Shown one piece after another: positions 12,623 to 59,147 of a DNA stretch of 64,000 bases. The stretch is from Squalus acanthias. Taxonomy: Eukaryota. The stretch is taken from the NCBI GenBank assembly GCA_030390025.1, contig JASTWF010000033.1, positions 4,962,001-5,026,000 on the forward strand, read 5' to 3'. Position numbers and translations under genes: made by a program. Position 1 is the stretch's first letter; each line of letters opens with the position of its first letter. The notes beneath the pieces are model-generated. The model saw nothing but the letters and a program-made list of their open reading frames with translations. It did not search any database and was not told where the DNA came from.

Positions 12623-13530
12623 TTATTTCTGATTATGAATGAATTGAATAATTGAGGTAAGCGGATATTTCACCGCCCTCTTCACCTGCTCTCTGAACTT
12701 GGACTGGGTCACCCCATAAATAAACGTGTTCGTGCAGCAACTTAAATTCAGCAGCATTAATCCGACATATTGAAAGATTACTAAAGAAGCAGTGTAATAA
12801 TCGGGATCTGTTCCTGTAATGCTATAATGTAAGAAATATATAACAAAGACCAGCCACAGCAGTATGAAGCTGGCGGATATGGTGAAGAGTAAAATCACAG
12901 ACTTCCTTCTGCTCTCCATCTCTGGGTCTCTGCCATTCTCTCCCTTGCTCTCACCCCTCAGTCCCTTACGGACCCGACTGGCCACTAAAATGTGTCTGAC
13001 TGTCAGAGCGTTGAGCAACAGAATTAGAGCAAATGGGAGCAATGGGGTTAAAACCGTGTCAAACCAGTCAAATCCCACCCACCCGGGCTCAGTATAATAG
13101 TTTGGGATTGTGACACAGTACCACGGCACATTGTCGATTATCTCCAAGGGTTGAATTACAAAGTAGAAGGGAACGTCTTTTAAACAGAGCAGAATGCCGG
13201 TTGTTGCCAGAACCACAGCCGCAGTTCTCTCGGTGCAATATTTAGTTTTCAGCTTCTGGCAACAAATGGCCACAAATCGATCAAAGGTGAAAGTGACAGT
13301 GAACCAGACAGAACAGTCTGTGGCTGCACGGGTCAGGACAGCCATAACACTACACACAGGGGTGATGTCCAGGAAAGACAATGGGAAATAATAATAATTG
13401 ATCCTCCTCAGTATGACCTCAGTGACAATGGTCAGGAGATCCGCCGCTGCCATGCCCACCAGGTAGCGAGTGGTGCAGGTGGAGAGCCCGCACTTTCCCC
13501 GGGACAGGATCACAATCGCCACTAAATTCA
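12623..13530 (-). CDS. Class A GPCR, GPR139/GPR142-like family, copy 1, exon 2 (302 aa; 324 aa with exon 1)
   Basis: Hydrophobic helices covering the end of TM1 through TM7; MAAADL in TM2; Cys at the top of TM3 and in ECL2; DRF; NTFIY in TM7; acceptor ttttcccttctgtgttttacAG at 13532-13531. Confidence 0.92.
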
Positions 13531-13835
13531 CTGTAAAACACAGAAGGGAAAAGAGACTGGAAATTACTATCACACATTCTCCGTGTCTGAGCCCAGACAG
13601 TAAGGGCTGGATTTTAACACACCAAAAACCGGCGGATTGGGGTCGGGTCAGAGGTGAAAATATAAAAATATCCTCCCGACCTCAACCCGCCTCCAACCCG
13701 CCCGCTTCCGAGTTTGACGGAGACGGGACAGGGGGGCGGGCAGCGAACCGCTCCCAGGAGGCGGGTTGGCAAGTTAAATACTTTAATGAGGCGAGCAGAC
13801 TCTGATTTAACTTGTTTTACAGGTTTAACTACGGC

Positions 13836-14268
13836 TGGCATAGTGCTTAGCACTGGTGCTTCACAGCGCCAGGGACCCGGGTTCGAATCTGACCTCGGGT
13901 GACTGTCTGTGTGGAGTTTGCACATTCTCCTCGTGTCTCCGTGGGTTTCCTCCGGGTGCTCCGGTTTCCTCCCACAGTCCAAAAATGTGCAGGTTAAGTT
14001 GATTTGGCTATGATAAATTGACCCTTAGTGTTAGGGGGGGATTAAATATGTGGGGTTATGGGGATAGGATGGGATATGTTAGGGGGAATTAAATACCTGG
14101 GGTTACGGGGATAGGGTGGGATAGGTGCAGGCTCGATGTGGGGATTCTGTGTGAGAAAGCAGGGACAGGGTACTGGATTTGGATGATCACCCATGATCGT
14201 ATTGAATGGTGGAGCAGGCTCGATGGGCCGAATGGCCTACTCCTGCTCCTAGTTCCTATGTTTCTATG
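13836..14268 (+). mobile_element. tRNA-derived SINE (HE1/V-SINE-like) with a CR1-derived tail
   Basis: A-box-like TGGCATAGTG; B-box GGTTCGAATC; core GTGTGGAGTTTGCACATTCTCC..GTGGGTTTCCTCCGGGTGCTCCGGTTTCCTCCCACAGTCCAAA; tail shared with the LINE. Confidence 0.9.
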
Positions 14269-14633
14269 TCTGGACAAACTAGATGCAGGAAGAATGTTCC
14301 CGATGGTCGGAGAGTACAGAACCAGGGGTCATAATCTAAGGATAAGGGGTGAGCCATTTAGGACAGAAATGAGGAAGACTTTCTTCACCCAGAAAGTGGT
14401 GAACCTGTGGAATTCTTTACCACAGAGTGTAGATGAGGCCAAGTCATTAATTATATTCAAGAATGAGTTAGATATATTTCTTAAAGCTAAAGGTATCAAG
14501 GGATATGGGGAGAAGGCAGGTACAGGGTACTGAGTTTAGATGATCAGCCATGATCTCATCGAATGGCGGAGCAGGCTCGAGGGGCCGAATGGCCTACTCC
14601 TGCTCCTATCTTCTAAGTTTCTATGTTTCTATG
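14269..14633 (+). mobile_element. CR1-type LINE 3' fragment
   Basis: LDKLDAGRMFP...GYGEKAGTGY* plus tail; same 3' junction as the element ending at about 60765. Confidence 0.9.
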
Positions 14634-14671
14634 TCCGGATCGGACATCTCCAAGAATGGGGATTGGACACG

Positions 14672-17600
14672 CCCCCGAGACCGGTCAAACCCCCGGGACC
14701 GGGCACACTCCAGGGAGTGGTCAAACCCCCTGGGACCGGTCAAACCCCCGGGACCGGTGAAACCCTCGGGACTGGTCACACCACCGTGTGCGGCCACACA
14801 ACCCAGGACCGGTCAAAGCCGCTGAACCGGACAACCCTCAGGGACTGGTCAAACCCCTGGGACAGGTCACACCCCCAGGACTGGTCAAACCCCCGGGACT
14901 GGTCACCTCCCCGGGACCGGTCATACCCCCGGGACTGGTCACCCCCCCGGGACCGGTCACATCCCCGGGACTGGTCAATCCCCTGGGACAGGTCAAAACC
15001 CCGGGATCGGTCAAACCCCCGGGACCGGTCAAACCCCGGGGCTGGTCAAATCCCCGGGACCGGTCAATCCCCCGGGTCCGGTCAAACCCCCAGGACTGTT
15101 CAAACCCCCGGGACCGGTCAAACCCCCAGGACTGGTAAAAGCCCCGGGACTGGTCAAACCCCCGTCCCTGGTCAAACCCCCGGGACAGTTCAAAAACCCC
15201 CCCAGGACCTGTCTAACCCCCGGGACCGGTCACACCCCCGGGACCGGTCACACCTCCAGGGACCGGTCAAACCCCGGGACGGGTCAAAGTCCCGGGACTG
15301 GTCAAACCCCCCCAGGACCTGTCAAACCCCCGGCATCGGTCAAACCCCCGGGACCGGTCAAATTCCCCGGGACTGGTCACACCCCTGGGACAGATCAAAC
15401 CCCCCGGGACTGGTCACACTCCACGGGTCCGGTGAAACACCCAGGACTGGTCAAACCGCGGGACTGGTCAAACACCCGGGACCGGTCAAACCCTCGGGAC
15501 TGGTCAATCCCCCGGGACCGGTCAAAACCCCGGGACTGGTCACACCCCCAGGAACGGTCAAACCCCCGGGACTGGTCAAACCCCCGGGACTGGTCAAACC
15601 CTGGGACCGGTCAAACCCCCGGGACCGGTCAAAACCCCGGGACTGGTCACACCCCCAGGAACGGTCAAACCCCCGGGACTGGTCAAACCCCCGGGACTGG
15701 TCAAACCCTGGGACCGGTCAAACCCCCGGGACTGGTGAATCCCCCGGGACTGGTCAAACCCCCGGGACTGGTCAAACCCTGGGACCGGTCAAACCCCCGG
15801 GACTGGTGAATCCCCCGGGACTGGTCAAACCCCCGGGACTGGTCAAACCACCGGGCCCGATCACACCCCCGGGACTGGTCAAACCCCTGGGATTGGTCAA
15901 TCCCCTGGGACTCGGTTAAACCCCCGGGGCCGGTCAAACCCCGGGGACTGGTCAAACCCCCGGGACCGGTCAAACCCCCGGGACCGGTCAAACCCCCGGG
16001 AAAGGTCAAACCCCGGGGACTGGTCAAACCCCCGGGACCGGTCAAACCCCCGGGACCGGTCAAATCCCCGGGACAGGTCACCCCCCCCCCCCCCCCGGGA
16101 CCGGTCAAACCCCCGGGACAGGTCAAACCCCCCAGGACCGGTCAGACCCCTGGGACTGGTCACATCCCCAGGACTGGTCAATCCTCCGGGACTGGTCAAA
16201 ACCCCGGGAAGGGTCACACCCCCGGGATAGTTCAAACCCCCGGGACCGGTCAAACCCCCGTGACCGGTCAAACCCCCGGGACTGGTCAAACCGCCGGGAC
16301 TGGTCACACCCTCGGGACCAGTCAAACCCCGGAAATGTTCAAACCCCCGGGACCGGTCAAACCCCCGAGAAAGGTCAGCCCCCCCAGGACTTGTCAAACC
16401 CCCCGGGACCGGTCACACCCCCGGGAATGGTCACACCCCCAGGGACTGGTCAATCCCCTGGACTGGTCAAAACCCCGGGGACTGGTCAAACCCCTGGGAT
16501 CGGTCAGTCCTCCAGGACCGGTCAAACGCCCGGGACCGGTCAAACCCCCGGGACAGGTCACCCCCCGGGACCGGTCAAACCCCCAGGACAGGTCAAACAC
16601 CCGGGACCGGTTACACTCCCGCGACCGGTCAAACCCCCGGGACCAGTCAAACCCCCGGGACTGGCCATACCCCCGGGACAGGTCACAACCCCGGGACTAT
16701 TTACACCCCCGGGACTGGTCAAACCCCCGGGACTGGTCAAACCCCCGGGACCGCTTACACCCCCTGGACCAGTCATAACCCCGGGACCGGTCAAACCGCG
16801 GGACCGGTCAAACCCCGGGACTGGACAAACCTGGGACTGGCCAATCTCCCGGGACTGGACAAACCCCCGGGACCGGTCACACCCCCGGGACCAGTAAAAA
16901 CCCCAGGACCGGTCAAACCCCCGGGACGGGTCACACCCCCGGGACTGGTCAAACTCTGGGGAACGGTCACACCCCTGGGACAGGTCAAACCGCCGGGACC
17001 AGTCACACCCCCAGGACAGGTCAAACCCCGGGACGGGTCAAACCCCCGGGACTGGTCAAACCCCCGGGACGGGTCAAACCCCGGGATGGGTCAAACTCCT
17101 GGGACTGGTCAACCATCCGGGACCGGTCAAACCCCGGGACGGGTCAAACCCCCAGGACTGGTCAAACCCCCGGGACCGATCACACCCCCGGGACCGGTCA
17201 CACCCCGGGACCAGTCACACACCCGGGACCGGTCACACCCGTGGGACCGGTCAAGCACCCGGGACTGGACACACCCCCGGGAGCGGTCAAATCCCCGGGA
17301 CTGGTCAAACCCAAGGGACCGGTCAAACCCCCGGGACTGGTGAACCACCCGGGACTGGTCAAACCCCCAGGACTGGTCAAACCCCCGGGACCGGTAGAAC
17401 CCCCGGGACTGGTCACTCCCCCGGGACTGTTCACACCCCGGGACCAGTCAAACTCCCGGGACCGGTCACACCCCCGGGACCGGTCAAACCCCCGGGACCG
17501 GTCAAACCCCTGGGACTGCTCACACCCCCGGGACCGATCAAACCCCCGGGACTGGTCAGACCCCCGGGACTGGTCAAACCCCCAGGACCAGTCAAACCCC

Positions 17601-18270
17601 CGGGACCAGTCAAACCCCGGGATCGTTCAAACCCCCGGGACCGGTCAAACCACCGGGACCGGTCAAACCCCCGGGACTGGTCAAACCCCGGGGACAGGTA
17701 AACTCCCCCCGGGACCGGTCAAACCCCCGTGACTGGTCAAACCCCCGGAACCAGTCAAATCTCCGGGAACGGTCAAACCCCCGGGACCGGTCAATCCCCG
17801 GGACCAGTCAAAGCTCCAGAATCATTCAAACCCCCGGTGATCGGTCACACCCCTGGGACCGGTCAAACCCCCGGGACCGCTGAAAACCCCGGGACTGGTC
17901 AACTACCCGGAACCAGTCAAACCCCTGGACCAGTCAAACCCCCGGGACCTGTCACACCCCCGGGACCGCTCACACCCCTGGGACCGGTCAAACCCCCAGG
18001 ACGGGTCAATCTCTTGGGACTGGTCAAATCCCCGGTACCGATCAAACCACTGGGATCGTTCAAACCCCCGGGACCGGTCACACCCCCGGGACCGTTCACA
18101 CCTCAAGGACCGGTCAAAACCCCGGGACCGCTCAAACTCCCGGGACCGGTCACACCTCTGGGACCGGTCAAACCCCCGGGACCGGTCAATCCCCTGGGAC
18201 CAGTCAAAGTCCCGGAACCGTTCAAACCCCCGGGGATCGGTGACACCCCCCGGAACAGGTCAAATCCCCT
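14672..18270 (+). repeat. GC/CpG-rich 18-bp satellite, about 3.6 kb, in the GPCR copy 1 intron
   Basis: Unit CCCCCGGGAC(C/T)GGTCA(A/C)A; the C-run length varies. Confidence 0.97.
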
Positions 18271-18611
18271 TGTCCTTAATCGGACACATCGCGGGATCAG
18301 AATCCCCATCCAACGCAGTTTCATCCATCCGACCTACCTGGTCATGCTCCGGAGTCCTCCCACCCCGTCCGACTGGAAGCCCGACTGTCAATCAGGCTGA
18401 CTTCCGGGGTGGGGAACCAGTCAAGGAGAAAGGACGTATGCTGTGGAGCTAAGACACCCCAACGTCCGGGAATAGCTGGACTTCCTGGTATCCTGTCTGA
18501 TATTCCACATCCACCCTGTACCCTCCGGCCATCGTACATAACCTGCCTCTCTTAATATCCAGGCGGAAGTATATGAGCAAATGCAAATTACGGAGACTGC
18601 TTTAATTCTGA

Positions 18612-20640
18612 TAAGAACATAAGAACATAAGAAATAGGAGCAGGAGTATGCCCTTTGTTCCTTCGACCCTGCTTCCGCATTCAATGAGATCATGGCTGAT
18701 CTTCTGCCTCAATTCCATTCACCGGCCTTATCGCCATATCCCTTGATGCCCTTACTAGTCAGAAATCTATCGACCTGTTTTGAATATACCCAATGACTGA
18801 GCATCCACAGCCCTCTGGGGTAGAGAATTCGAAAGATTTACCACCCTCTGCGTGAAGATATTTCTTCTTATCCTTGTCCTGAATGGCCTACCCTTTATCC
18901 AAAATCTGTGGCCCCCGGTTCTAGACTCCCCAGCCAAGGGAAACATTCTCCCTGCACCCACCCTATCAAGCCCTGTAATAATTTTGTATGCTTCAATGAG
19001 AACCCCTCTCATTCTTCTGAATTCAAGAGAATACAGGCCTAGTTTACTCAATCTATTCTCATACGACAGATCCGTCATCCCAGGAATAAATCTCGTGAAC
19101 CTTCGTTGCACTCCCTCTATGGCAAGTATATCCTTCCTTATGTAAGGAGACCACCATTGTACACAGTACTCCAGGTGTGGTCTCACCAAGGCCCTATAGA
19201 ATTGGAGGAAGACTTCTTTACTCCTGTACGCAAGTATCCTCTTGTAATGAAGGCCAGCATATCATTTGCTTTCCTAATGGCTTGCTGCACCTGCACATTC
19301 ACTTTCAGTGACTCATGTACAAGAACACCCAGGTACCTTTGAGCATCTGCATTCCCCAATCTTTCACTATTTAGGAAATACTCTGCCTTTCCGTTTTTTC
19401 GACCAAAGTGGATAACTTCACATTTATCCTCATTATAATCCATCTGCTATGTTCTCGCCCACTCACTGAGCCTGTCGACATCCCCTTGAAGCCTCTTCAG
19501 ATCCTCTTCGCAACTGACACTGCCACCTAGCTTTGTGTCATCAGTAAATTTGGAAATGTTACATTTAGTCACATCATCCAATCATTGATATAGATTGTGA
19601 ATAGCTGGGGCCCAAGCACCGATCCTTGCGGTACCCCACTAGTCACAGCCTGCCATCCTGAAAAAGACTCATTTATCCCTACTCTGTTTCCTGTCTGTTA
19701 ACCAATTCTCAATCCATGCTAGTATATTACCCCCAATTCCAAGTGCCCTAATTTTTTTCACCAACCTCTTGTGTGGGACCTTATCGAAGGCCTTCTGAAA
19801 ATCCAAATGCACCACATCTACCGGTTCCCCTTTGTCTACTCCACTAGTTACATCCTCAAAGAACTCCAATAGGTTTGTCAAACAGGCCTTCCCTTTCATA
19901 AATCCATGTTGACTCTGCCCAATCTTATAATTAGTTTCTAATTGCACAGCTATTGCATCCTTTATAATAGATTCCAGCATTTTCCCAACGACTGATGTGA
20001 GACTAGCAGGTCTGTAGTTCCCCTTTTCTCTCTCCCTCCTTTCTTAAAACGCGGGGTTACATTTGCTATCCTCCAATCTGCAGGAACCATTCCAGAATCT
20101 ATAGAATTTTGGAAGATGACAACCAATGCGTCCACTATCCCAATGGCCACCTCTTACAACACCCGAGGATGTAGGTCATCCGGTCCTTGAGATTTATCGA
20201 CTTTTAGTCCCATTAATTTTGCTAGTACTGTTTTTTTTACTAATAATAATTTATATTATGTTCTTCATTCTCGCCACGCCCTTGGTTTTCTTGTATTTCT
20301 GGGAGGTTTTTTGTGTCTTCCTCCGTGAAAACAGAAACAAAGTATTTATTTAATTTCTCGGACATTTCCTCATGCCCCATTATAAATGATCCGATCTCTG
20401 AGTGTAAAGGACCTACATTTACCTTCGCCAGTCTTTTCCTTTTCACATACCTATAGAAGCTTTTACAATCCGATTTTATATTTTTCGCTAATTTATGCTC
20501 ATATTCCATTTTCCCTTTCTTTATCCATTTCTTGGTCCCCCTTTGCTGATTTCTAAAAGATCCCAATCCTCAGGCTGACTGTGTTTTCTGGCAACTTTAT
20601 AAGCTTCCTCCTTTTACTTAATACTAGCTTTAATTTATTA
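18612..20640 (-). mobile_element. CR1-type LINE, 5'-truncated, disrupted ORF2
   Basis: Series of RT ORFs from 20566 to 18767; CATAAGAA tail. Confidence 0.92.
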
Positions 20641-20644
20641 AAAA

Positions 20645-22035
20645 AAGACAATGCTGAAAACACTCAGCGGGTCAGGCAGCATCTGTGCAGAGAGAAACAG
20701 AGTTAACATTTCAGGTCCATGACCTTTCATCAGAACTGGACGATTCCAGATATTATCAGTATTAAAGCAATGATAGAGTCACAGAAAAGTGCTTTAGCAT
20801 AAGGATAGAAAAAAGAGGAATCTCTGTGATTGGTTGGAGGGCAGGAGTGATTCAATGACTAAAGGGATGATGGTGCAAGGCGAATGGGAGAATTAAAGAA
20901 ACAGAAGATGGGTCTAGAGGAGGTGTAAATGGTTACAGCAGAATAACAAGGGGAGGGGTAGTAGGGCACATGTGGCAGAGAAAGTTGGGTAGACCCCAGG
21001 TGTTTGGGCCAGCCCGCTGACCGTGTGCCGGGATCGCCACCCCAAGCCCCAGCCCAAACCTCCTCCACTCCCAGTGGCTCTGGTGGAGCCATCCTCCATT
21101 ACCAGCACATGTCGTCCGAGAAAACGGGAGCGGAGGTTATGATCTGAAGTTTTTAAACTTAGTGTTGAATCCGGCAGGCAATAAAATGCCGAATCGAAAA
21201 ATAAGCTGCTGCTCCTCATTGAGTTTAAAATGGGAACAGTGCAGGAGGCCGAGAACAGAGAGTTCAGAGTGGGAGTGGGATGTAGAATTAAAGTGGGAAG
21301 TGACCTGAAGCTCTGGATCACACTTGTGCACTGAACGGAGGCGTTCAGCAAAGCAATCACCCAATCTGTGCTTAGTCCAGCCAATGTACAGGAGACTGGA
21401 TCGTGGACAGCGAGTATGATTTACTAAAATGATGGAAGTACAAGTAAATTAGTCTTTCACGTGGATGGAATGTTTGGGGCCTTGGCTGGTGGGATGGAAA
21501 GATGGGAAAGGGCAGCTGTTGCATCTCCTGCGCTTGCATAGGAAGGTGCCGGGGAAGGGGAGCAGATGTTAGTGGTGATGGAAGTGTGGACCAGGGTGTT
21601 GCGAGGGCCGGGGTGATGGGAGTGCAGGGGAAGATATGTTTGTTGTTGGCCTTAGCTGGACATGATGGAAATGGCAGAGTAGGTTCCTTGAATGTGAAGG
21701 CAAATGCATTGGAAGCTGAGGACAAGGGGTGATGGGAGCAATGCAGATTGACACGGTCGAGGGCCCTGTCATTCACAATGGAGGTGAGTATTCCGCTGAG
21801 GAAATATGAAGACATTTCGGAAGCACTGTTGTGAAAGGTGGCATCGTCAGAACATATGCAACGGTGGCAGAGAAACTTTGATAATAGAATATAGCCCTTC
21901 CAGGAAGCCGGGTGGGAGGAAGTCTACTCAAGATTCCTGTGGGAGTTGGTGGGATTATAGTAGATATTGGTGGATGGCCTAGACCCTGAAATGAAGATCG
22001 AGAAGTCGAGGAAGGGAATGGAAGATCACTGTGGT
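20645..22035 (-). mobile_element. Degraded Penelope-like element, 3' half
   Basis: GIY-YIG remnant GDCFAERLRSVHKCDPEL..HSHSELSVLGLLHC; terminal repeat at about 20645-20860. Confidence 0.85.
20701..20737 (-). ncRNA. Minimal type I hammerhead ribozyme motif with intact core
   Basis: AGUU-CUGAUGA-A-AGGUC-AUG-GACCU-GAA-AUGU-U-AACU; stems I and II pair perfectly. Confidence 0.7.
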
Positions 22036-22039
22036 TCAC

Positions 22040-24180
22040 CATTTAAATGTTATTCCTGCATTTAAAATGGAAGATAGAACAATTCCATGGATCTACAGAC
22101 CAGTTAGCATAACGTCGATGGTAGGAAAGTTAATGGAATCCTTACTCAAAAATGTAACAGAAAAACAATTAGAAACACAAAATATAATAACGAGTAGTCA
22201 GCAGGTTTTCCAAAAGGAAATCATAGAATGATTATAGCACAGGAGGAAGCCATTCGGCCTGTCGAGCCCGTGCTCACTCTCTGCACATGCACTGCAGCTA
22301 ATCCCAATCCCCTGCCCTTTCACCGTAGCCCTGCAATTCTTTTCCTTCAGGTACTTATCCCATTTCCTTTTGAAAGCCACGATTGAATCTGCATGCACCA
22401 CCCTTTCAGGCAGTGCATTACAGATCATAACCCAACGCTGCCTTAAAAAGTTTTTCCTCATGTCACCTTTGGATCTTCAGCACATCACCTAAAACCTGTG
22501 CCCTCTGGTTCTTGACCGTTCTACCGATGGGAACAGCTTCTCTCTATCTGCTCTGTCTACTCTGTCTAGAACCCTCATGATTTTGATCACCTCTATCAAA
22601 GCTCCTCACAATCTTCTCTGCTCTACTGAGAACAACCCCAGCTTCTCTAGTATATCTACATAACTGAAGTCCCTCATCCCTGGAAACATTCTTGTGAATC
22701 TTTTCTGCACCTTCTCTAAAGCCTTCATGCCCCTTCCTAAAGTGCGGTGCCCAGAATTGGACACAATACTCCAGTTGTAGCCGAACCAATGTTTCATAAA
22801 TGTTTATCATAACTTCTTTGCTTTTGTACTCTATGCCTCTATTTATAAAGCTAAGATTCCAGTTAGCATTTTTAACCGCTTTCTCAACTTGCCCTGCCAC
22901 CTTCAACGATTTTTGTACATGTACCCCCGGGTCCATCTGTTCCTGCACCCCCTTTGGAATGTCTTGCTTGAGTAACCTTAGTGAATTATTTGAATAAGTA
23001 TCAGAAAGATTAGATAAGGGTTATGCAGGAGATATATTTGATTTTTTAAAGCCATTGGATAAGGTACCACATAGCAGACTGAATCACAGAGCAAGTGGAG
23101 TTAGGAGACAATCAGCAGAATGGATACCAAGATAGCTGCAAGAACAGAAAAGTGGGAGTAGTGGATAAAGCTATTTACTCAGATAGGTGGATGCTGAGAA
23201 GTGATGTTCCACAAGGATCGGCGCTCAATCATTGTTGTTCACCATTTACATAAACGATATTGAATCGGGAAGCAAAAGAACAAATTCAAAATTTGCAGAT
23301 TAATCCAAATTGGAAGTACAGTTAATACAGAGGAAGAATGCAAAACAATACCTGCAGACATTAATACACTTGCAGAAAGGGCGTTTAAATGGCAAATTAA
23401 TTTCAATATAGCTAAGTGAGAGGTACTGCATTTTGCTAGGAAGAATAAGTTTCCCAAATACTCCTTGGAAATCAGAGTGGGAATGGGGTAGAGGGGCACC
23501 GATTAACAAATCATTTAAAGTAGCAACGCATATTAACATGACCATAAACATGGAAACAAAGCACTGGGGTTCATTTCTAGAAGAATAGAATCGTAAAGCA
23601 AAGAGGTTAGCTTAAACTTATATCGAACCTTGGTTATACCACACTGAGCGTACTGTGTGCAGTTCTGATCTCCATATTACATAAAGGATATTAAGGCTCT
23701 GGAGAAAGTGTAATATTTTTACAAGGATGACACCAGAACTGAGACATTATAAGCATCAGGAAAGATTGAACAGGCTGGGGCTCCTTTCTTTACAAAAGAG
23801 AAGGCTGAGGGGTGGCCTAATAGAGGCCTTTAAATTTTGAAGGGGTAACATAGGGTAGATGTTTATACTCGTGACGTGAGTGCAAAATTGGAGATTATCG
23901 ATGAAAGAGAGTCACTAATAAATCCAATACGGAATTGAGGAGAAATGTCTTTACTCAGAGATTGGTTAGAATGTGGAACTCCCTACAACTTGGAGTACTT
24001 GAGGCGAATAGCAGAGATGCATTTAAGGGGAAGCGAGAGAAGTACACGATGTAGAAAGCAGTAGAAGGTTATGCTGATCGGGTGAGATGAAGAGGAGTGG
24101 GAGGAGGCTCAGGTGGAGCATAAACACTGGCATAACCTAGTGTGGCCGAATGGCCTGTTTTGTGCTGTAAATTCTAAGGA
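22040..24180. mobile_element. Old + strand CR1 (22040-22220 and 22960-24180) with a nested - strand CR1 (22222-22958)
   Basis: YRPVSITSMVGKLMES, then an inverted RT C-terminus with tail, then the decayed RT resumes. Confidence 0.85.
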
Positions 24181-24659
24181 GTTCTCCGTAACTTGAGTGC
24201 AAATTAATCACATTCATCAGTTCATTTAATCATTGCGGATATTGAAGTGTTTTATTTATTATGGCATTGCCCTATATATTACATTATTATCAATTTATTA
24301 ATGCTATTATTTACTGCCCTCGGGACTGATATGTGTATTATGAAAACCTGATATACATGTTCTTCAGTTATGCATGTCTCTCCTCGCAGGGACACACCTC
24401 ACTGAGCTAAGGCCAGAGATCGTTGCAGGCTACCTGTGCAGAGACCCTGAATCAGAGGTAAGAACTGGTTCGTCAAACCTTAATCAGTTACAGAAGTGGA
24501 ATAATCAATAACCACAGCCCAATATTCATCCTGTCTAATGAGAGGGAGGAATTGAATGAAATCAATTGTAGGGATATTGACGGGATTGAAGGCCGATAAA
24601 TCCCCAAGGCCTGATAATCTACATCCTAGGGTACTTAAGGAAGTGACCGTAGAAATAGT

Positions 24660-27600
24660 AAGAACATAAGAACATAACAAATAGGAGCAGGAGTAGGCCA
24701 ATTGGCCCCTCGAGCCTGCTCCGCCATTCAATAAGATCATGGCTGATCTGATCCTAACCGCCAATCTACTATCACAGAACCATCTCGTGAACCTAACAGA
24801 ATTGGACACACGAAATAGGAGCAGGATCAGGCTACACGGCCTCTGGGCCCGCTACACTACCCACAGGGCCATGACCGATCCGAAACTAGACTCATGTCCA
24901 AATTCCTGCCCGCTCCCCGCAACCCTTAATTCCCTTTACTTCTAGGAAACTGTCTATTTCTGTTTTAAATTTATGTAATGATGTAGCTTCTACAGCTTTT
25001 TGGGGCAGCATATTCCATGGACCTACCACCCTCTGAGTGAAGTAGTTCCTTCTCATCTCAGTTTTGAATGAGCAGACCCTTATTCTAAGATTATGCCACC
25101 TAGTTCTAGTTTCACCCATCATCGGGAACAACCTCCCCGCATCCACCCGATCCAACCCCTTCACAATCTTATATGTTTCAATAAGATCGCCTCTCATTCT
25201 TCTGAACTCCAATGAGTAGAGTCCCAATCTACCCAACCTCTCCTCATATGTCCATCCCCTCATCCCCGGGATTAACCGAGTGAACCTTCTTTGTACTGAC
25301 TCGAGAGCAAGTATGTCTTTTCTTAAGTATGGATACCAAAACTGTATGCAGTATTCCAGGTGCGGTCTCACCAATACCTTGTACAACTGAAGCAATACCT
25401 CCCTATTTTTATATTCTATCCCCTTAGCAATGAAAGCCAACATTCCATTGGCCTTCTTAATCACTTGCTGCACCTGCATACTAACCTTTTGAGTTTCGTG
25501 CACCAGGACCCCCAGATCCCTTTGTACTTCAGTACTTTCCAGTTTCTTGCCATTTAGATAAAAACTTGCTCTACTATTTTTCCTGCCAAAGTGCATAACC
25601 TCACACTTTCCAGTATTGTATTCCATCTGCCAAATCTCTGCCCACTTACTTAGCCTGTCTATGTCCCCTTGCAGATTGTTTATGTCCTCCTCACTCACTA
25701 CTTTCCCTCCCATCGAAGTATCATCTGCAAACTTTGATATGTTACACTCGGTCCCCTCCTCCAAATCGTTAATATAGATTGTAAAGAGTTGGGGACCCAG
25801 CACTGACCCCTGCAGAACACCACTAGTTACTGATTGCCAGTCCGAGAATGAACCTTTTATCCCAACTCTCTGACTTCTGTTAGATAGCCAATCCTCTATC
25901 CATGCCAGAATATTACCCCCAATCGGTGCCGGCTCGAAGGACCGAATGGTCTACTCCTGCACCTATTTTCTATATTTCTATCCAGTCATTTTTTATCTTA
26001 AGCAATAATCTTTTGTGTGGCACCTTGGCAAATGCCTTTTGGAAGTCTAAATACACCACATCCACTAGTTCCCCTTTATCCATCCTGTGTGTTACTTCCT
26101 CAAGAACTCCAGCAAATTTGTCAAACATGACTTCCCCTTCATAAAACCACGCTGACTTTGTCCTATTAAATTATGATTATCCAAATGTCCCGTTACTGTA
26201 TCCTTAATAATGGACTCCAAAATTTTACCTACCACAGATGTTAGGCTAACCGGTCTATAGTTTCCAGCCTTCTGTCTACTGCCCTTTTTAAATAAGGGTG
26301 TTACATCAGCAGTTTTCCAGTCTGCCGGGATCTTTGCTGAGTCCAGGGAGTTTTGGAAAATTATTACCAATGCATCCACAATCCCTACCGTCACTTCCCT
26401 CAAGACCCGAGGATGTAAGCCATCAGGTCCAGGTGATTTATCCGCCTTGAGTCCCATTATTTTACCGAGTACCACTTCCTTAGTGATTTTGATCGTGTTT
26501 AGCTCCTCCCCCCTCCCCTAAAGCCCCCTGTTTGTCCAGTGTTGGGATATAATTAGTGTCCTCTACTGTAAAGAATGATACAAAATATTCATTCAGTGTA
26601 TTTGCCATCTCCATATTTGCCACCATTAATTTCCCGGTGTCATCCTCTAAGGGACCAACATTTACTTTAACCTCCCTTTTTCTTTTTATATAACTATAAA
26701 ATCTCTTGCTATCTGTTTTTATATTTTTTGCTAATTTACTTTCATAATCTATCTTCCCTTTCTTAATCAATCTTTTTGTTATTTTTTTCTGTCTTTTAAA
26801 GTTTTCCCAATCCTCTATCCTCCCACTAGATTTGGCTACATTTTTAGCTCTTGTTTTTAGTTGAATACTATCCTTAATTTCTTTACTTAGCCACGGATGA
26901 CTGTCTTTTCTTTTACACCCTTTTCTTCTCAGTGGAATATATATTTTTTGGAAGTTGTAAAATAACTCCTTAAATGTACACCACATATCATGTGTCGTCT
27001 TACCCTTTAATCTATTTTCCCAATCCACTCTACTCAATTCCGCTCGCATACCTTCATAGTCTCCTTTATTCAAGCTGAGCACGCTTGTTTGAGATCCGAC
27101 CTTCTCACCCTCTAATTGAATATGGAATTCAACAATTTTATGGTCACTCATTCCAAGGGGATCCTTTACTATGGCATTTTTAATTAATCCTGTCTCATTA
27201 CTCAGGACCAGATCTAAGGTTGCTTGCCACCTGGACGGTTCAGTTACATACTGCTCAAGAAACCCATCCCTAATACACTCAATGAACTCATCCTCAAGGC
27301 AGCCCTGCCCAATTTGATTTGTCCAATTAATACGATAGCTAAAATCCCCCATAATTACAGATGTTCCCTTATTACAAGCCTCAACTATTTCCTGATTGAT
27401 ACTCCGTCCAACAGCGTTGCAACTATTCAGAGGCCTATAGACTACGCCCACTAGAGTTTTTTCCCCTTATTATTCCTTATCTCCACCCAAACTGTTTCAT
27501 TATCCTGATCTTTTGACCCAATATAATTTATCTGTATTACAGTGATTCCTTCCTTCATTAACATAGCCACCCCACCTCCCCTTCCTTCCTGCCTGTCCTT

Positions 27601-29300
27601 CCTGATCGTTAAATAACCTGGTATGTTTAATTCGCAGGCATTGTCACCCTGCAGCCATGTTTCTGTAATGGCCACAAGATCATACCCATATGTAGTTATT
27701 TGTGCCATTAACTCGTCTATTTTGTTACGAATGCTACGTGCATTCAGATAGAGAACTTTCAAATATGTTTTGTGACACTTAGTTCCTGCTTTTGCCCTTT
27801 TTATTACTTTACCTTTTACTCCATACATTCTGCCCCTTCCTGACACATTCTGGTTTTTAATTTCCCCACAGCTAGCTAAGTCTATGACCTTCTCTGTTGT
27901 CATTTTTATTATTTGCTCTCTAGGATCCTCCCCCCCACTAGTTAGTTTAAAGCCCTCTCCACAGCCCTAGATATATGATCCGCCAGGACTATAGTCCCAG
28001 CACTGGCAAAGTGAACAACGTCCCAACCGAACAGCTCCCTCCTGCCACAGTACTGGTGCCAGTGTCCCAGGAAGCTAAACCCATTTCTCCCACACCAGTC
28101 TTTGAGCCACTTATTTAAATCTCTAATTGTATTTGTCCCAGCCAAATTCACTCGTGGCTCAGGTAATAATCCAGAGATTTTTACCCTTGAGGTTCTGTTT
28201 TTTTAATTTGACCCCTAGCTGCTCATACTCCTTTAAAAGAACCGGCTTCCTTGTCCTATCTACGTCGTTTGTACCAACATGGACCACGACAACTGGATCC
28301 ACCCCCTCCCACTGCAAGTTTGTTTCCAGCCCAGAGGAGATGTCCTTAACCCTGGCACCGGGCAGGCAACACAGCCTACGGGACTCTCACACTCGGCTGC
28401 AGAGAACTCTATCTATCCCCCTAATAATACTATCCCCTACCACAACAACATTTCTATTTACTCCCCCCTCTTGAATGGCCCCACGTTCCACGGTGCTGTG
28501 GCCAGGTAGCTCACCCTCCCTGCTGTCCCTGCTCCCGTCCCCACAGGGAGAAAGAACCTCGAACCTGTTGGACAAGAGCAAGGGCTGCGGCTCCTCCAAC
28601 ACTAACTCCTGGATCCCCATACCTGCCTCACTCGTAGTCACACCGTCCTGTCCCTGACCATGGGCTACATCTGAATTAATTAACTTCATAGGTGTGACCA
28701 CCTCCTGAAACACAAAGTCCAGGTACTTCTCCCCCTCCCTAATGTGTCGCAGTGTCTGAAGCTCAGACTCCAGCTCATCAACACGGAGCTGGAGTTCCTG
28801 TAGCAGCAGACACTTGTCACAGATGTAATCAATGTGAGCCTCAATGGGGTCTACCGGCTCCCACATCTTGCAACAGTAACACATCACCTGCTCCATTCTA
28901 TGTAATTTATTATTTTTTTTATTCTTAGTTATGGACACTCTCTGCCCGATTATAGCTGCTAGTATCCCCTCTAATTAATTGGATTTAAATTAAATCAGTC
29001 CCTCTAAATTACATCAGTTAAATGGTTTACCAAGAGTCACTCTGCACCAGAAAGGCCTTATTAACTACAACCCAGAGTTAAAGTTTGAAAAGAGCACCCT
29101 TCACCCCACTCACCCGAACTCACACTTACCCAAACTCAGCACTCTCTGCTGACTTGCACTCAGTGCTTGCTCTCACTAGCACTGGTCTTTTTATACTGTT
29201 TGTTTGTTTACAGCCAAATGAGTCACCCCTGCTGATTGATTAGAAAACTGGTTTCCACTGACTGCTGTGCCAATTTAATCCTACTTCAGTGTAACCTTGT
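24660..29300 (-). mobile_element. Near full-length CR1-type LINE with ORF1 (Zn-finger, coiled coil, SGNH esterase) and ORF2 (APE + RT); frameshifted
   Basis: ORF1: CYCCKM..ICDKC, LQLRVDELESEL, VVVGDSIIR; APE: YLNARSIRNK, AITETWL, LDLV, SDH; RT: KSPGPDG, KFADD; tail at about 24660-24890; small + strand tail insertion at about 25922-25982. Confidence 0.95.
29188..29225 (-). promoter_or_regulatory. Candidate CR1 5' promoter elements (TATA box and AP-1 site)
   Basis: TATAAAAA at 29195-29188 (-) and TGAGTCA at 29219-29225, upstream of ORF1. Confidence 0.4.
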
Positions 29301-29457
29301 TTTACTCTTCTTAAACCAACAGAATCCCAAACAGTTAACTTTTCCCCTTCACTTAAACTGCTTAAGTACTCTTATCAAGAATGATTTTATGAGAACTAAC
29401 AATTAAAGAATTACTCACACTTACACAAACTCAGCACTCTCTGCTGACTTGCACTCA

Positions 29458-30968
29458 GTAGATGCGTTGCTGGTCATCTTTCAAAATTCTATAGATTCTG
29501 CAACAGTTCCCATGTATTGGAGCGTAGCTAATGTAACCCCACTATTTAAAAAAGGTGGTAGAGATAAAATGGGGAACTATAGACCGGTAAGACTGACATC
29601 GGTACTGGGCAAAATGCTAGAGTCCATTATAAAAGATATAATAGCAGAGCACTTGGAAAACAGTGACAGGATCGGACAAAGTCAACATGGATTTCCAAAA
29701 GGGAAATCATGCCTGACTAATCTACTGGAATTTTTTGAGGATGTAACTGCCAGAATAGATAAGGGAGAAATAGTGGATGTGGTGTATCTGGACTTTCAGA
29801 AGGCTTTCGATAAGGTCCCGCATAAGAGATTAGCGTGCAAAATTAAATCACATGGGATTGGGGGTAAGGCACTGATTTGGATAGAGAACTGGTTGACAGA
29901 CAGGAAGCAAAGAGTTGGAATAAACGGGTCTTTTGCCGAGTGGCAGGCAGAGACTAGTGGGGTACCACAGGGATCGGTGCTAGGACCCCAGCTATTCACA
30001 ATATATATTAATGATCTATACGAGGGAACTAGATGAAATATTTCTAAGTTTGCAGATGACACAAAGCTGGGTGGGCGTGTGTGCTGTGAGGAGGATGCAG
30101 AGAAACACCAGTATGATTTGGACAGTTTGGGTGATTTTGCAGATGCATGGCAGATGCAGTATAATGTGGATAAATGCGAGGTTATCCACTTTGGTGGCAA
30201 AAACAGGAAGACAGATTATTATCTGAACGGCAATAGATTGGGAAAAGGGGAAGTGCAACGAGACCTGGGTGTCCTTGTGCACCAGTCGCTGAAGGTAAGC
30301 ATGCAGGTGCAGCAGGCGGATAAGAAGGCAAATGGTATGTTAGCCTTCATAGCGAGAGCATTCGAGTACAGGAGCACGGATGTCTTGCTGCAGTTGTACA
30401 AGTTGGTGAGTCACACCTTGAGTATTGTGTGCAGTTTTGGTCGCCTTATCTGAGGAAGGATGTTCTTGCCATGGAGGGAGTGCAGCGAAGATTTACCAGA
30501 CTGATACCTGGGATGGCAGGAATGAAGTATGAAGAGAAATTGTGTCGATTAGGCTTATATTCGCTAGAGTTTCGAAGAATGAGAGGGGATCTCATTGAAA
30601 CTTATAAAATTCTAACAGGACTAGACAGTCTAGATGCAGGAAGGATGTTCCCGATGGCGGGGGAGTCCAGAACGAGGGGTCACAGTCTAAGCATAAGGGG
30701 TAAGCCATTTAGAACCGAGATGAGGAGGTATTTCTTCACCCAGAGAGTGGTGAACATATGGAATTCTCTACCACATAAGGCAGTTGAGGCCAATTCTTCA
30801 AATATATTCAAGAAGGAGATAGATATATTTCTTAAAGCTAAAGGGATCAAGGGATATGGGGAGAAAGCAGGGTCAGGGTACTAAATTTGGATGATCAGCC
30901 ATGATCTCATGAAATGGCAGCGCAGGCTCAATGTCCTACTCCTGCTCCTATCTTCGATGCTTCTATGT
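29458..30968 (+). mobile_element. CR1-type LINE, 5'-truncated
   Basis: RT ORFs 29449-30884 and tail. Confidence 0.93.
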
Positions 30969-31223
30969 AACATAATGAAATTCAGTGCTCATGAACCACA
31001 GATCCTCAGGGCGGTGTTGGGGGAAGGTGATTAATCAGCACCAAAACAATTAAAGTAATTACAATAACTCTACTTAGAGTAAGAATACGTCAATATAGAG
31101 AGGTATTGAATACTGTAACACTGCTGTCCTGCTGTTTACCTGTCAGTAATTAGTTAACATCTGTTTCTATTGGTGCAGTTCAGTAGGAACCAAAGCATTA
31201 TCAATGCATTTCAACTTATATAT

Positions 31224-32835
31224 GAACAAAAGAACATCAGAAATAGGAGCAGGAGTAGCCCATTCGGCCCCTCGAACCAGCTCCGCCATTCAATAAAATC
31301 ATGGCTGATCATCGACCTCAATAGCCGTTTCCAGCCACTGGGATAGAAACATAGAAGATAGGAGCAGGAGTAGGCCATTCGGCCCCTCGAGCCTGCTCCA
31401 CCATTCAATGCGATCATGGCTGATCATTCAAATTCAGTACCGTGTCCCTGCTTTCTCCCCATATCCCTTGATCGCCTTAGCCTTAAGAAATATAACTAAC
31501 TCCTTCTTGAATATATTTAATGAATTGGACTCAGCTATCTTCTGTGGTAGAGAATTCCACAGGTTCACCACTCTCTGGGTGAAGAAATTCCTCCTCATCT
31601 CAAACCTAAATGGCTTACCCCTTATCCTTAGATTGTGACCCCTGGTTCTGGACTCCCCCACCATCGGGAACATCCTTCCTGCATCTAGTCTGTCTAGTCC
31701 TGTTAGAATTTTATAAGTTTCAATGAGATCCCCTCTCATTCTTCTAAATTCTAGCGAATACAAGCTCAATCGACCCAATCTCTCTTCATACGTCATTCCT
31801 GCCATCCCAGGTATCAGTCTGGTGAATCTTCGCTGCACTCTCTCCATGGCAAGAACATCCTTCCTTTGATAAGGCGACCAAAACTGCACACAATATTCAA
31901 TGTGTGGTCTCACCGAGGCCCTGTACAACTGCAGCAAGACATGCTTGCTCCTGTACTCGAATCCTCTCGCTATGAAGGCCAACATACCATTTGCCTTCTT
32001 AACCGCCTGCTGCACCTGCATGCTTACCTTCAGCGACTTGTACACAAGGACACCCAGGTCTCGTTGCACTTCGCCTTTTCCCAATCTATTGCCGTTCAGA
32101 TAATAATCTGCCTTCCTGTTTTTGCCACCAAAGTGGATAACCTCGCATTTATCCACATTATACTGCATCTGCCGTGCATCTGCCCAATCACCCAACCTGT
32201 CCAAATCATACTGGAGTTTCACTGCATCCTCCTCACAGCACACAAGCCCTCCCAGTTGTGTGTCATCTTCAAACTTAGAGATATTACATCTAGTTCCCTC
32301 GTCTAGATCATTAACATATATTGTGAATAACTGGGGTTCTAGCACCGATCCCTGCAGTACCCCACTAGTCACTGCCTGCCACTCGGAAAAAGTCCCGTTT
32401 ATATCAACTCTCTGCTTCCTGTCTGCCAATCAGTTTTCTATCCAAGACAGTACCTTACCCCCAATCCCGTGTGCTTTAACTTTGCATGCTAATCTCTTAT
32501 GCGGGACCTTATCGAAAGCCTTCTGAAATTCCAAATACACTACATCCACTGGTTCTCCCTTATCTATTCTACCAGTCACATCCTCAAAAAATTCCAGTAG
32601 ATTAGTCAAGCATGATTTTACTTTTGTAAATCCATGTTGACTTTGTCTGATCCTGTCACTGTTTTCCAAGTGTTCTGCTATTCCATCTTTTATAATGGAC
32701 TCTAGCATTTTCCCCACTACCGATGTCAGTCTTACCGGTCAATAATTCCCCATTTTCTCTCTACCACCTTTTTATAATAGTGGGGCTACATTTGCTACCC
32801 TCCAATCCATGGGAGCTGTTCCAGAGTCTATAGGT
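31224..32835 (-). mobile_element. CR1-type LINE, 5'-truncated, plus an extra tail fragment at about 31224-31320
   Basis: RT ORFs 32717-31434. Confidence 0.93.
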
Positions 32836-33201
32836 GTTCCACTCCGGTTAGTGACCCACACTCAGTAGTTCTAAAGTGAGAGATCCTTCCACCAATACCT
32901 ACTCTCAGAGAGTTCCTTACACTGAGGTCTGATTCAACAGTACACAATATTACACGAAAGTCAATAACTACATAACACAGCGAGCCCGTGAGTTACAAAC
33001 AGAGTTTTACTTTCAGTTGAGGCAATGGAATAAAACCTCAGAAATAATTCAGGACATTTGTCCAAACGAAATGCTATCACTGATCGGGTGTCTGTATAAC
33101 GGTGACCACTGGATCAGGATGTAACATTATCAGTCACATAGCAAAACCAGAGACCAGCTCACACACAGATTTAAACAACTTCAATGGTTATAATCACTTA
33201 C

Positions 33202-33332: not shown

Positions 33333-33360
33333 GGGACATTCCCAGAGCCTTTCATTTATA
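33333..33360 (-). promoter_or_regulatory. GPCR core promoter: TATA box and a kB-like site
   Basis: TATAAAT at 33360-33354 (-), about 90 bp upstream of the ATG; GGGACATTCC at 33333-33342 fits GGGRNWYYCC. Confidence 0.55.
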
Positions 33361-56485: not shown

Positions 56486-56609
56486 TTGTAAATTGTATTA
56501 AACGTGTATCGGACCCGGGTCAGGTCACACTTAGAGAACTCTGCATAGTTCTGGTCTCCATAATATAAAAAGGATATAGAAGAACTGGAGAAAGTGCAAA
56601 AAATACTTA

Positions 56610-57410
56610 CAACAACAACTTGCATTTATATAGCGCCTTTAACAAAGTAAAATTAACCAAGCGATTCACGGGAGCGTTATTGAACAAAACCTGAGCCTGA
56701 GCCACATAAGGTGATATTAGGAAAGATGATCAAAAGTATGGTCAAAGAGGTAAGTTTTAAGCAGCATCTTAAAGGAGGAGGGAGGTTTAGAGAAGCAGAA
56801 AGGTTCAGGGAGGGGATTCCTGAGCTTCGGGCCCAGGCAGCTGAAAGCACAGCCGCCAATGTTGGAGCGGTTAAAATCAGGGATGTGCAAGAGGCCAGAA
56901 TTAGAGGAGCACAGAGATCTCGGGAGTGTTGAGGGGCTGGTGGAGCTTGCAGAGATAGGGAGGGCAAGGCCCTGTAGGTATTTGAAAGCAAGGGTGATAA
57001 TTTTAAAATGGAGACATTGCTGGAACGGGAGTCACTGTTGGTCCACGAGCACAGGGGTGGTGGTTTACCGGCATTTGATGTGGGTTAGGTTACGGGCAGC
57101 ACAGCTTTGGGTGAGCTCAAGCTATGGAGGGTGGGAGATGGGAAGCCGGCCAGGAGAGAGTTGGTGTTATCAAGTCTAGAGCTAGCAAAGGCATGGATGA
57201 TGGTTTGAGCAGCAGATGAGCTGAGGCAGGGGCAAAGTTCGGCGATGTTACCGAGGTGGAAGTAAGCCGTCCTGGTGATGGTGTGAATATCCGGTCGGAA
57301 GATCATCCCGTGGTCAAATACGACACCAAGGTTGCAAACAGTAAACTGGTGCTTCGGAAAATGATGGAGTTGGTGGCTTGGCAACGGAGATTGTTAAGCG
57401 GGCCAATAGC
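56610..57410 (-). mobile_element. L2-type LINE 3' fragment nested in an old CR1 (56520-56610 and 57430-57900, + strand)
   Basis: VCNLGVVFD..TAYFHLGNIA..IHAFASSRLD..NSLLAG; 3' end GGCGCTATATAAATGCAAGTTGTTGTTG. Confidence 0.88.
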
Positions 57411-58161
57411 TTCGGTCTTACAAATATTTAGTTGGATGGCACCAGAACTGAAAGATTGCAGCTATCGGGAAAGATTAAACAGGTTGGGCCTTTCTGCTAT
57501 AGAAGAGAAAGGACTTAGATGAGGCCTGTTAGAGATATTGAAAATTATGAATGAGTTGAACAGGGTAGATGTGGAGATAATGTTTACACTTGTGGGAGAA
57601 TGCAACTCTTGGGTTTATAAATACAAGATAGTTACTAATAAATCCAATAGGGAAATAAGGAGCAATTTCTATACTCAGAGAGTGGTTAGAATGTGGAACT
57701 CCCTACCACAGGAAGTGGTTGAGGAAAATAGTTTAGATTCAACAGAATGAAACTAGACGAGTAAAGGCTTGAAAGGGGAATAGAAAGATCTTCTGAGCGG
57801 CTCAGATGAGGTAGATGCAATGAGAGGAGACTGGTGTGGAGCATAAACACCAGCACAGACTGATTGGGCCGAATGGCCTGTTTGTGTGCTATTTTAGGTA
57901 ATATAATCCTCTGAACTGCAGCTCAGCTCTGTCTGCCTACCTATTGACCAGGCTCTTACTCTGGAAGCTGCGAATTAATTGCTGCCCTCAATCGCTGAAG
58001 GGACTCTTTACAGAAGAGCTCAGAGTGAAAGCAGCAAACTAGTGGTCCTGTCCCGAAAGACAATGTGGGAAATGTCAGTCAGAAACAGTGCCGAGTCCTA
58101 AACACAGTGCTCTTTCCGCCGCTGGCTGTATCTTCAGATCTCCAGCGATTGCTGGTGTAAT

Positions 58162-59147
58162 TCAGTGGATGGCAGTCTGGGGCTGAATATTACATTCCTG
58201 GACTGGAAACACTGGGAGCCGCCTCTGGGCTGCGCTCAATTGTTTCTGATTATTAATGAATTGAATAATTGAGGTAAGCGGATATTTCACCGCCCTCTTC
58301 ACCTGCTCTCTGAACTTGGACTGGGTCACCCCATAAATAAATGTGTTTGTGCAGCAACTTAAATTCCGCAGCATAAATCCGACTTTTTGAAAGATATATA
58401 AAAAATCAATGTAATAAAGGGGATCTATTCCTGTAATGTTATAATATAAGAATTCTATAACATTCACCAGCCACAGCAGTATGAAGCTGCCGGATATGGT
58501 GAAGAGTAAAATCATAGACTTCCTTCTCCTCTCCATCTCTGGGTCTATGCCATTCTCTCCCTTGCTCTCACCTCTCAGTCCCTTACGGACTCGACTGGCC
58601 ACTAAAATGTGTCTGACTGTCAGAGCGTTGAGCAAAATAATTAAAGCGAATGGGAGCATTGGGGTTGAAACTATAACAAGCCAAATATATCCCACCCACC
58701 CGGGCTCAGTATAATAGCCTGGGATTGCGACACAGAACCACGGCACATTGTCGATTATCCTCCTGGGTTGATATGTAAAGTAGAAGGGAACGTCTTTTAA
58801 ACAGTGCAGAATGCCGCTTGTTGCTAGAACCACAGCCGCAGTTTTCTCGGTGCAATATTTATTTTTCAGCTTCTGGCAACAAATGGCCACAAATCGGTCA
58901 AAGGTGAAAGTGACGGTGAACCAGACAGAACAGTCTGTGGCTGCACGGGCCAGGACAGCGATAACACTACACACAGGGGTGATGTCCAGGAAAGACAATG
59001 GAAAATAATAGAAATTGATCTGCCTCAGTATGACCTCAGTGACAATGGTCAGGAGATCCGCCGCTGCCATGCCCACCAGATAGCAAGTGGTCCAGGTGGA
59101 GAGCCCGCACTTTCCCCGGGAAAGGATCACAATCGCCAGCAAATTCA
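58162..59147 (-). CDS. Class A GPCR, GPR139/GPR142-like family, copy 2, exon 2 (328 aa); exon 1 not in window
   Basis: Colinear with copy 1 without indels, about 85% aa identity by eye; acceptor cccttctgtgttttacAG at 59149-59148. Confidence 0.9.

Follow-up and report, generated by a model that had tools for sequence, protein, structure and literature searches.

What kind of receptors are encoded in tandem at a satellite-rich locus of Squalus acanthias, and why do two otherwise similar copies differ so much where a ligand would be bound? The stretch analysed, here called the window, comprises 64,000 nucleotides (NCBI GenBank assembly GCA_030390025.1, contig JASTWF010000033.1, positions 4,962,001 to 5,026,000, forward strand). 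Its two genes are intact and belong to a family of class A G protein-coupled receptors (GPCRs) that is very large in elasmobranchs and distantly related to GPR139 and GPR142. The family is probably a diversified repertoire under selection. The full reading, in which its members sense many chemicals from outside, most likely in chemosensory tissue, is regarded here as evenly poised.

The two genes of the window

Both genes lie on the minus strand, amid fragments of long interspersed nuclear elements (LINEs) and satellite arrays, and both proteins match Pfam 7tm_1 (72.5 and 67.2 bits, cut-off 30.5). Copy 1 is a complete two-exon gene. Its first exon, located by tblastn with the N-termini of relatives, consists of 22 codons plus one base, encodes a short N-terminus and the first half of transmembrane helix 1 (TM1), ends at a GT donor and joins exon 2 in frame to give 324 amino acids. 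The features are listed below in window positions, except for the last (ECL, extracellular loop).

33353..33360, minus strand, candidate TATA-like box, 92 bases upstream of the copy 1 ATG
33202..33268, minus strand, copy 1 exon 1
13531..33201, minus strand, copy 1 intron, 19.67 kb, GT..AG, phase 1
12623..13530, minus strand, copy 1 exon 2, remainder of the seven-helix receptor, 301 codons plus stop
13328..13432, minus strand, copy 1 top of TM2, ECL1 and top of TM3, residues 33-67, third hypervariable zone
13049..13159, minus strand, copy 1 ECL2 and top of TM5, residues 124-160
12749..12847, minus strand, copy 1 top of TM6, ECL3 and top of TM7, residues 228-260
58162..59147, minus strand, copy 2 exon 2, 327 codons
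58666..58776, minus strand, copy 2 ECL2 and top of TM5
58366..58464, minus strand, copy 2 top of TM6, ECL3 and top of TM7
G000:C2561:5038293-5038227, copy 2 exon 1, about 12 kb past the window end

A putative TATA-like element also precedes copy 2 exon 1. The copy 1 stop codon is absent from copy 2, and the copy 2 tail is 26 residues longer.

Divergence between the copies

The original prediction described an exon-2 alignment free of indels with about 44 differences, some 27 of them in two short zones (ECL2 with the top of TM5, and the top of TM6 with ECL3 and TM7). The recount agreed closely: 44 of 301 residues differ, 14 codons differ silently, and 26 of the 44 differences fall within 70 residues, the zone boundaries being our own. 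The corresponding two-window scan statistic of 26 was unmatched in 2,000 random placements (mean 18, maximum 24). Within the two zones the nonsynonymous divergence (dN) was 0.27 and the synonymous divergence (dS) 0.07; the remainder of exon 2 gave 0.037 and 0.10, and the whole exon a dN/dS of 0.91. The flanks differed at roughly 6-9% of bases (20/300 on the 3' side, 20/299 in the intron at the acceptor, 18/298 in the promoter and 26/300 in the intron at the donor), and the first exons at 17 of 67 bases.

The two copies had also been described as charge-swapped. The residues concerned are present (D154 and D157 in copy 1; E231, K254 and R260 in copy 2), but the charges are not at the same site, and each residue is common among 121 close paralogues (D154 in 55, D157 in 63, E231 in 28, K254 in 22 and R260 in 79). 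Net charge over 30 presumed pocket positions was -2 in copy 1 and +2 in copy 2, within a span of -5 to +3 for the 121 paralogues, among which 93 distinct pocket strings were found. Two members picked from so variable a family would typically look like this pair, and the so-called charge swap amounts to ordinary polymorphism. Across the family, variability in a third zone (top of TM2, ECL1 and top of TM3) matched that of the two named zones. In the region encoding the C-terminus (window 58162-58242) the family is polymorphic in length, with 43 of the 121 close paralogues ending at 301 codons and another 43 reading through to 327.

Selection on the outer half of the receptor

Paralogues were collected as 129 loci from two protein searches, picked by closeness and hence biased to intact copies (127/129), and as 60 loci from a motif search. 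Together they yielded 162 intact sequences, 150 of them distinct, and the 121 at 75% identity or more formed the set for site models. The codon site models were self-written, with branch lengths fixed up to scale, kappa fixed and naive posteriors; their M0 likelihood agreed with that of IQ-TREE.

For the 121 paralogues, the comparison of M2a with M1a gave 2ΔL of 1107 and an omega of 4.9 on 14% of sites. When double-base changes were allowed, 2ΔL was 897 at the rate that fitted best among those tried and fell to 538 at the highest. Five segments analysed each on its own tree gave 26-215, 76 thinned sequences gave 921, and an independent subfamily of 19 members gave 119, with the selected sites mainly in loops. 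Neutral simulations of six scenarios (one run per scenario), with shuffling that ranged from absent to complete at 5-codon intervals, gave 2ΔL of 0-210 and an omega of at most 1.93; the M8/M8a optimiser was unreliable on these, returning a negative difference when recombination was absent, so only M2a versus M1a was used. A FUBAR-like grid flagged 56 sites, some of them implausible, and was not relied on.

The selected sites are concentrated on the outward side: 33 of the 40 M8 sites lie within the outer 126 of the 301 codons. Tree-free estimates pointed the same way. Nonsynonymous diversity was 0.257 (0.19-0.33) at the 30 pocket positions and 0.238 at a stricter, likewise presumed list of 24, while diversity at four-fold sites was 0.074 (0.057-0.094) and the flanks had medians of 0.063 and 0.10 (means 0.13 and 0.15). 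Amino-acid-changing diversity was 0.159 in the outer half and 0.036 in the inner half, where purifying selection was evident (ratio 0.52). Variability by column tracked that of 49 proteins from other sharks and rays (Spearman 0.72) and of 29 distant paralogues (rho 0.48). The predicted diversifying selection on the pocket is supported by site models and pairwise diversity alike, with two more conservative counts giving a weaker signal.

Those counts are among several results that weigh against strong selection for new pocket residues. A minimum-mutation count, in which both rates are saturating and the paths chosen favour silent steps, put the pocket nonsynonymous rate at 1.09 times the silent rate of the gene (0.80-1.41). 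In 40 disjoint close pairs the outer-half omega was 0.63, and the 40 selected sites had an omega of about 1.2 in close pairs, calculated from single-base codons with 37 multi-base codons set aside. The outer half also had somewhat more silent diversity than the inner (0.104 against 0.061, p 0.07). Seven of the M8 sites, each with 3-6 residues, fall on the inner side and could be artefacts. The 30 positions presumed to line the pocket were compiled after the M8 sites were known. Finally, a recombination test of the PHI type was not significant (p 0.93 and 0.46), linkage being low at all distances.

Exchange between paralogues is suggested by other comparisons. At the selected sites, 67 of 90 single-base amino-acid differences between close pairs were alleles found in distant paralogues, compared with 61 of 195 amino-acid differences elsewhere and 85 of 166 silent ones. 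Differences between close pairs cluster along the gene (0 of 1,000 shuffles), and the nearest neighbours of copy 1 change from segment to segment. Given the shared alleles and the clustering, much of the pocket change looks like exchange of old alleles at middle frequencies. In view of the values of 0.63 and about 1.2 in close pairs, the omega of 4-5 is probably inflated by conversion. The strength of diversifying selection is therefore uncertain.

Fold and pocket

A model calculated from a 141-sequence alignment (predicted local distance difference test 94.7, predicted template modelling score 0.90) has a predicted seven-helix fold with helix 8 and an ECL2 hairpin; an earlier model from a shallow alignment, with a local score of 46, was discarded. 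The folds predicted to be nearest are those of the neurotensin, GPR139, opioid, ghrelin and galanin receptors, with near-equal scores. Class A hallmarks are present (D2.50, the DR motif, the TM3-ECL2 cysteines, P5.50, W6.48 and N..Y in TM7). D30, C59, R84, C138, P165, N267 and Y271 are nearly invariant in the 141 proteins and W225 is invariant in the 121 paralogues, while P6.50 and P7.50 are mostly missing.

The residues of the GPR139 pocket for tryptophan and phenylalanine were taken from PMC5430874 and placed by alignment to human GPR139; those in TM1, TM2 and TM4 were excluded, as they fall in exon 1 or their register is uncertain. The close subfamily keeps only W6x48 out of F3x33, H5x43, W6x48, R6x51 and N7x38. 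Eight of the 13 positions matching GPR139 pocket residues are M8 sites (p 4e-5), and the selected deep-pocket positions in the subfamily of the window include 3.29, 3.32, 3.33, 6.51 and 7.39.

Size and turnover of the family

A 30-base TM3 motif had 904 exact matches in the genome and 1,894 with up to 2 mismatches, and an independent TM7 motif had 1,340 exact matches; reversed controls of both gave 0. A protein search of the same genome returned 4,711 first-look candidates, of which 130 were scored, all 83-100% identical. Exon 2 was intact in 35 of 60 sampled loci (Wilson interval 46-70%). The other 25 were broken or incomplete (15 with a frameshift, 9 with a stop or truncation and 1 without a start). 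The sample was fetched from the first 100 exact motif matches listed, all on scaffolds C1-C29, and intactness was judged on exon 2 alone; motif matches with mismatches may be more decayed. Identity to copy 1 among sampled members spanned about 50-90%.

The 121 distinct close copies have a median pairwise divergence of 9% and collapse to 95 on clustering at 1% and to 76 at 2%, so that counts may be inflated by 20-35% through alleles or uncollapsed haplotypes. The number of intact genes in the genome is estimated at several hundred to about 1,000. The family has the character of the birth-and-death repertoire that had been proposed: it numbers no fewer than 1,894 loci, 25 of the 60 copies sampled are broken or incomplete, and the close subfamily forms a clade of its own (support 89 in the tree described below).

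Large clusters were seen on chromosome-scale scaffolds (C7:137-153 Mb, C21:0.4-10.7 Mb, C26:30-43 Mb, C29 and C3:206-209 Mb), each apparently dominated by its own subfamily. Near the window, copy 2 and locus L032 are 99% identical and loci L009 and L010 score identically, both pairs being about 177 kb apart; G000:C2561:4842330-4921414 and 5020165-5097295 represent either a recent segmental duplication or an assembly doubling. Intronless retrocopies were considered and rejected: the longer matches were polypyrimidine tracts, and an AG acceptor was present at 161 of the 162 intact exon-2 loci.

In public automatic annotation 2,376 related proteins were found at E <=0.001. Among the 120 relatives listed, all that were named came from sharks or rays and nearly all were labelled 'probable GPR139', the name that RefSeq gives to many copies. 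Other sharks and rays, too, each have many paralogues in their annotation.

Relationship to GPR139, GPR142 and a third conserved gene

The automatic name does not reflect orthology. As had been predicted, the window genes are not GPR139 orthologues: a separate gene (L202, on scaffold C18) matches GPR139 in motif and sequence and groups with a GPR142-like gene on C24 (57% identical). GPR139 and GPR142, orphan class A GPCRs activated by tryptophan and phenylalanine (PDB 7vug and 9m42), are the best solved-structure match of the family profile (E 2.9e-14). They are also the source of the automatic name. W6.48 is retained in the family, and the phase-1 intron in TM1 has a position common to the family and to both low-copy genes, GPR139-like and GPR142-like, as judged from the acceptors of L202 and L203. 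However, the family is only about 22% identical to the genome's own GPR139-like gene and belongs to a separate clade, with about 2,000 loci as opposed to one gene. The GPR139 ligand residues E105, E108, F109, R244 and N271 correspond to hypervariable positions, and the TM3-ECL2 cysteine pair and ECL2 hairpin of the family are both missing from GPR139 in the alignment. Beyond the family, the next matches were named GPR139-like and came from amphibians, coelacanth, teleosts and amphioxus.

The nearest low-copy relative is a third conserved gene, L204 (G000:C17:37413763-37414743), with one clear copy in the genome, 62% identity to coelacanth XP_005988539.1 and about 28-30% identity to the family. 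It has counterparts in sturgeon, teleosts, amphibians, turtles and squamates, and this type of gene has been kept from sharks to turtles and squamates with no expansion seen, in contrast to the family. No mammal or bird name for these counterparts occurred among the 120 matches listed. Two gene models of the L204 type are fused with TMEM183A, a hint of shared synteny. A divergent relative with an open frame, L205 (G000:C9:120526322-120527191), is 36% identical to the coelacanth protein.

A provisional 72-row quick tree was drawn with midpoint rooting and no unrelated outgroup; it has long branches, 11 of 17 loci intended as additions were left out, and support is given by the Shimodaira-Hasegawa-like approximate likelihood ratio test (SH-aLRT) only. 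GPR139 groups with GPR142 (99), and the third gene makes up a clade of its own (99). A further clade (99), separate from both GPR139 and GPR142, unites the family with one long-branched salamander protein. The 16 close copies from this genome form a group that excludes other species (SH-aLRT 89). As drawn, the family appears to be sister to the third, unnamed gene. Since the salamander protein, P0230, and its cluster group with the shark family, the founder would predate the split from bony vertebrates.

The window proteins match PF00001 only; PF10324 was matched by 9 of the 141 aligned relatives. Neither the window proteins nor the 141 aligned proteins matched any Pfam family of olfactory, vomeronasal or taste receptors.

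Comparison with known receptor repertoires

In its size and clustering, many pseudogenes, lineage-specific expansion, compact coding region and variable pocket, the family resembles the chemoreceptor families OR, TAAR, V1R/ORA, V2R/OlfC and T2R, although it sits on an unrelated branch of the GPCRs. Mammalian MRGPR and formyl-peptide receptors are likewise expansions of orphan-type class A receptors, with positively selected extracellular faces and roles in itch, immune and vomeronasal sensing. No sequence kinship was seen between these and the family, and they number tens of genes and not about 1,000.

The srw genes of nematodes offer another parallel, a birth-and-death expansion from kin of FMRFamide and myosuppressin receptors with a proposed role in sensing environmental peptides (PMC2576165), and neighbouring Atlas clusters carry the Srw Pfam family. 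The differences are that the window proteins have no match to PF10324, the origin is independent, about 150 genes stand against about 1,900 loci, and clear positive selection is not reported for srw in the accessible text of that study.

Literature searches aimed at the family, covering titles and the starts of abstracts with few subscription papers, found no publication on it. The term 'GPR139' is absent from the accessible texts of the catshark (PMC11979771) and zebra shark (PMC10620051) genome papers, as is the word 'shark' from that of a review of GPR139. The family has been obscured by one misleading automatic name.

What the repertoire may sense

In vertebrates, the scaffold of this family is not known to have given rise to a diversifying GPCR repertoire, which the family probably is. 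It may have arisen by tandem duplication of a cassette containing the two exons. Selection would hold the G-protein face constant and favour new pocket residues, and short patches would swap between paralogues and so recombine these residues; mutation and patch exchange together would then supply pocket diversity to a common signalling output. Small peptides or amino-acid derivatives are guessed as the ligands, by analogy, because GPR139 responds to tryptophan and phenylalanine (PMC5430874), the kin include peptide receptors, and an ECL2 hairpin is predicted. The wider clade contains the sex peptide, proctolin and FMRFamide receptors (PMC12208981). That kin of peptide receptors can become a chemoreceptor repertoire is indicated by the Caenorhabditis elegans srw family, related to FMRFamide and myosuppressin receptors, which did so by birth and death (PMC2576165).

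Chemosensory tissue is our guess for the site of detection, and a chemosensory role, for example in smell or taste, is placed a little short of an even chance overall, and a little above even if a diversified repertoire under selection is granted. Known olfactory receptor genes number only 20-62 in cartilaginous fishes, although these animals have many sensory neurons (PMC10869828). Two observations speak against this role: Go and TRPC2, markers associated with V2R, are present in every catshark olfactory neuron examined (PMC10116579), and no GPCR is among the 50 most specific brain-plus-nose genes in the accessible part of PMC11979771. The boldest version, in which sharks and rays carry a fifth olfactory receptor family on a GPR139-related peptide-receptor scaffold, with several hundred to about 1,000 intact genes expressed one or a few per neuron and diversified by selection and patch exchange, seems rather unlikely. 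If true, it would mean at least 10 times the known shark olfactory repertoire and would overturn the view of a nose run by a few dozen V2Rs. In four presumed-RNA runs from related organisms, contigs of diverged paralogues cover exon 2, and in two contigs a loose end of about 12 letters resembles the junction of exons 1 and 2; three of the four runs also cover intron or promoter, so that DNA may be present, and both observations were counted neither way.

Of the competing explanations, a repertoire diversified for immunity or barrier defence comes nearest, though we consider it doubtful. Formyl-peptide and Mas-related receptors sense microbial or parasite peptides in mammals, and leukocyte, skin or gut receptors of this family could do the same or could be escaping a pathogen binder. 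Strong selection on outward-facing residues together with patch exchange is typical of host-pathogen genes, and the second subfamily has its selected sites mainly in loops. The whale shark is reported to be without MAS1 and its relatives (PMC8455134), so the niche may be open, and clear positive selection was found in only 1 of 19 nematode chemoreceptor families (PMC2576165). On the other hand, many selected sites are deep in the pocket, which fits ligand tuning better than escape from a surface binder, and no formyl-peptide or Mas-related receptor was among 17 structure-sequence matches. Receptors for a fast-changing internal ligand set, as in gametes or the reproductive tract, are very improbable. 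The sex peptide receptor does belong to the wider clade (PMC12208981), and in sharks several v2r and or genes show enrichment in the testis or in other organs (PMC11979771), but no large matching ligand family is known to us, no search aimed at one having been made. An answer of some other kind, outside chemosensory, immune or barrier roles and drift, is improbable.

Two explanations would do without a selected repertoire. A satellite-laden, duplication-prone cassette could have spread largely by drift, with a relaxed outer half and gene conversion mimicking selection. The minimum-mutation ratio of 1.09, the close-pair omega of 0.63, the 25 of 60 copies that are broken or incomplete and the satellites in every neighbouring cassette agree with this, and neutral shuffling alone yields 2ΔL of up to 210. 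It is nevertheless unlikely: amino-acid diversity in the pocket is 2.5-3.5 times that at four-fold sites, a level that relaxation cannot exceed; the observed 2ΔL is 4-5 times that of the most extreme neutral run and the signal persists on segment-specific trees; and the inner half is under purifying selection, with the same columns varying in other species. Uncollapsed haplotypes of a few genes, or a GPR139 orthologue, are refuted as the main explanation and retain scarcely any credence. The collapse of 121 copies to 95 or 76 and the many copies on small contigs would suit an assembly artefact, but the median divergence is 9%, clusters lie on chromosome-scale scaffolds, other sharks and rays have many annotated paralogues, and the true GPR139-like gene is separate.

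Whichever tissue expresses it, the family gives jawed vertebrates a large receptor repertoire for which no function has been described. About 1,900 loci, perhaps half of them intact, with a diversifying pocket contradict outright the relative paucity of GPCRs reported for the whale shark (PMC8455134). They may also bear on the count of 20-62 olfactory receptor genes. The catshark nose is described as V2R-based (PMC10116579).

Repeats around the genes

Two different 18-bp tandem arrays lie near or within copy 1.

33788..37368, unstranded, 18-bp tandem array upstream of the copy 1 promoter
14672..18269, unstranded, copy 1 intron, tandem array of another 18-bp unit (counterpart in the intron of copy 2, 60803-62194)

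The intronic array is part of the duplicated cassette. The 18-bp unit of the upstream array lies upstream of exon 1 in all five neighbouring copies examined, and counterparts of this array were seen at G000:C2561 4863270, 4944863, 5038813 and 5120731. Between the two genes lies a 13.4-kb array with a 22-bp unit (41135-54509) and internal higher-order duplications. Fragments of LINE reading frames for reverse transcriptase and endonuclease, which we take to be of the CR1/L2 type, occur at 24892-27966, 29407-32429 and 62288-63883 and are typical background of this genome.

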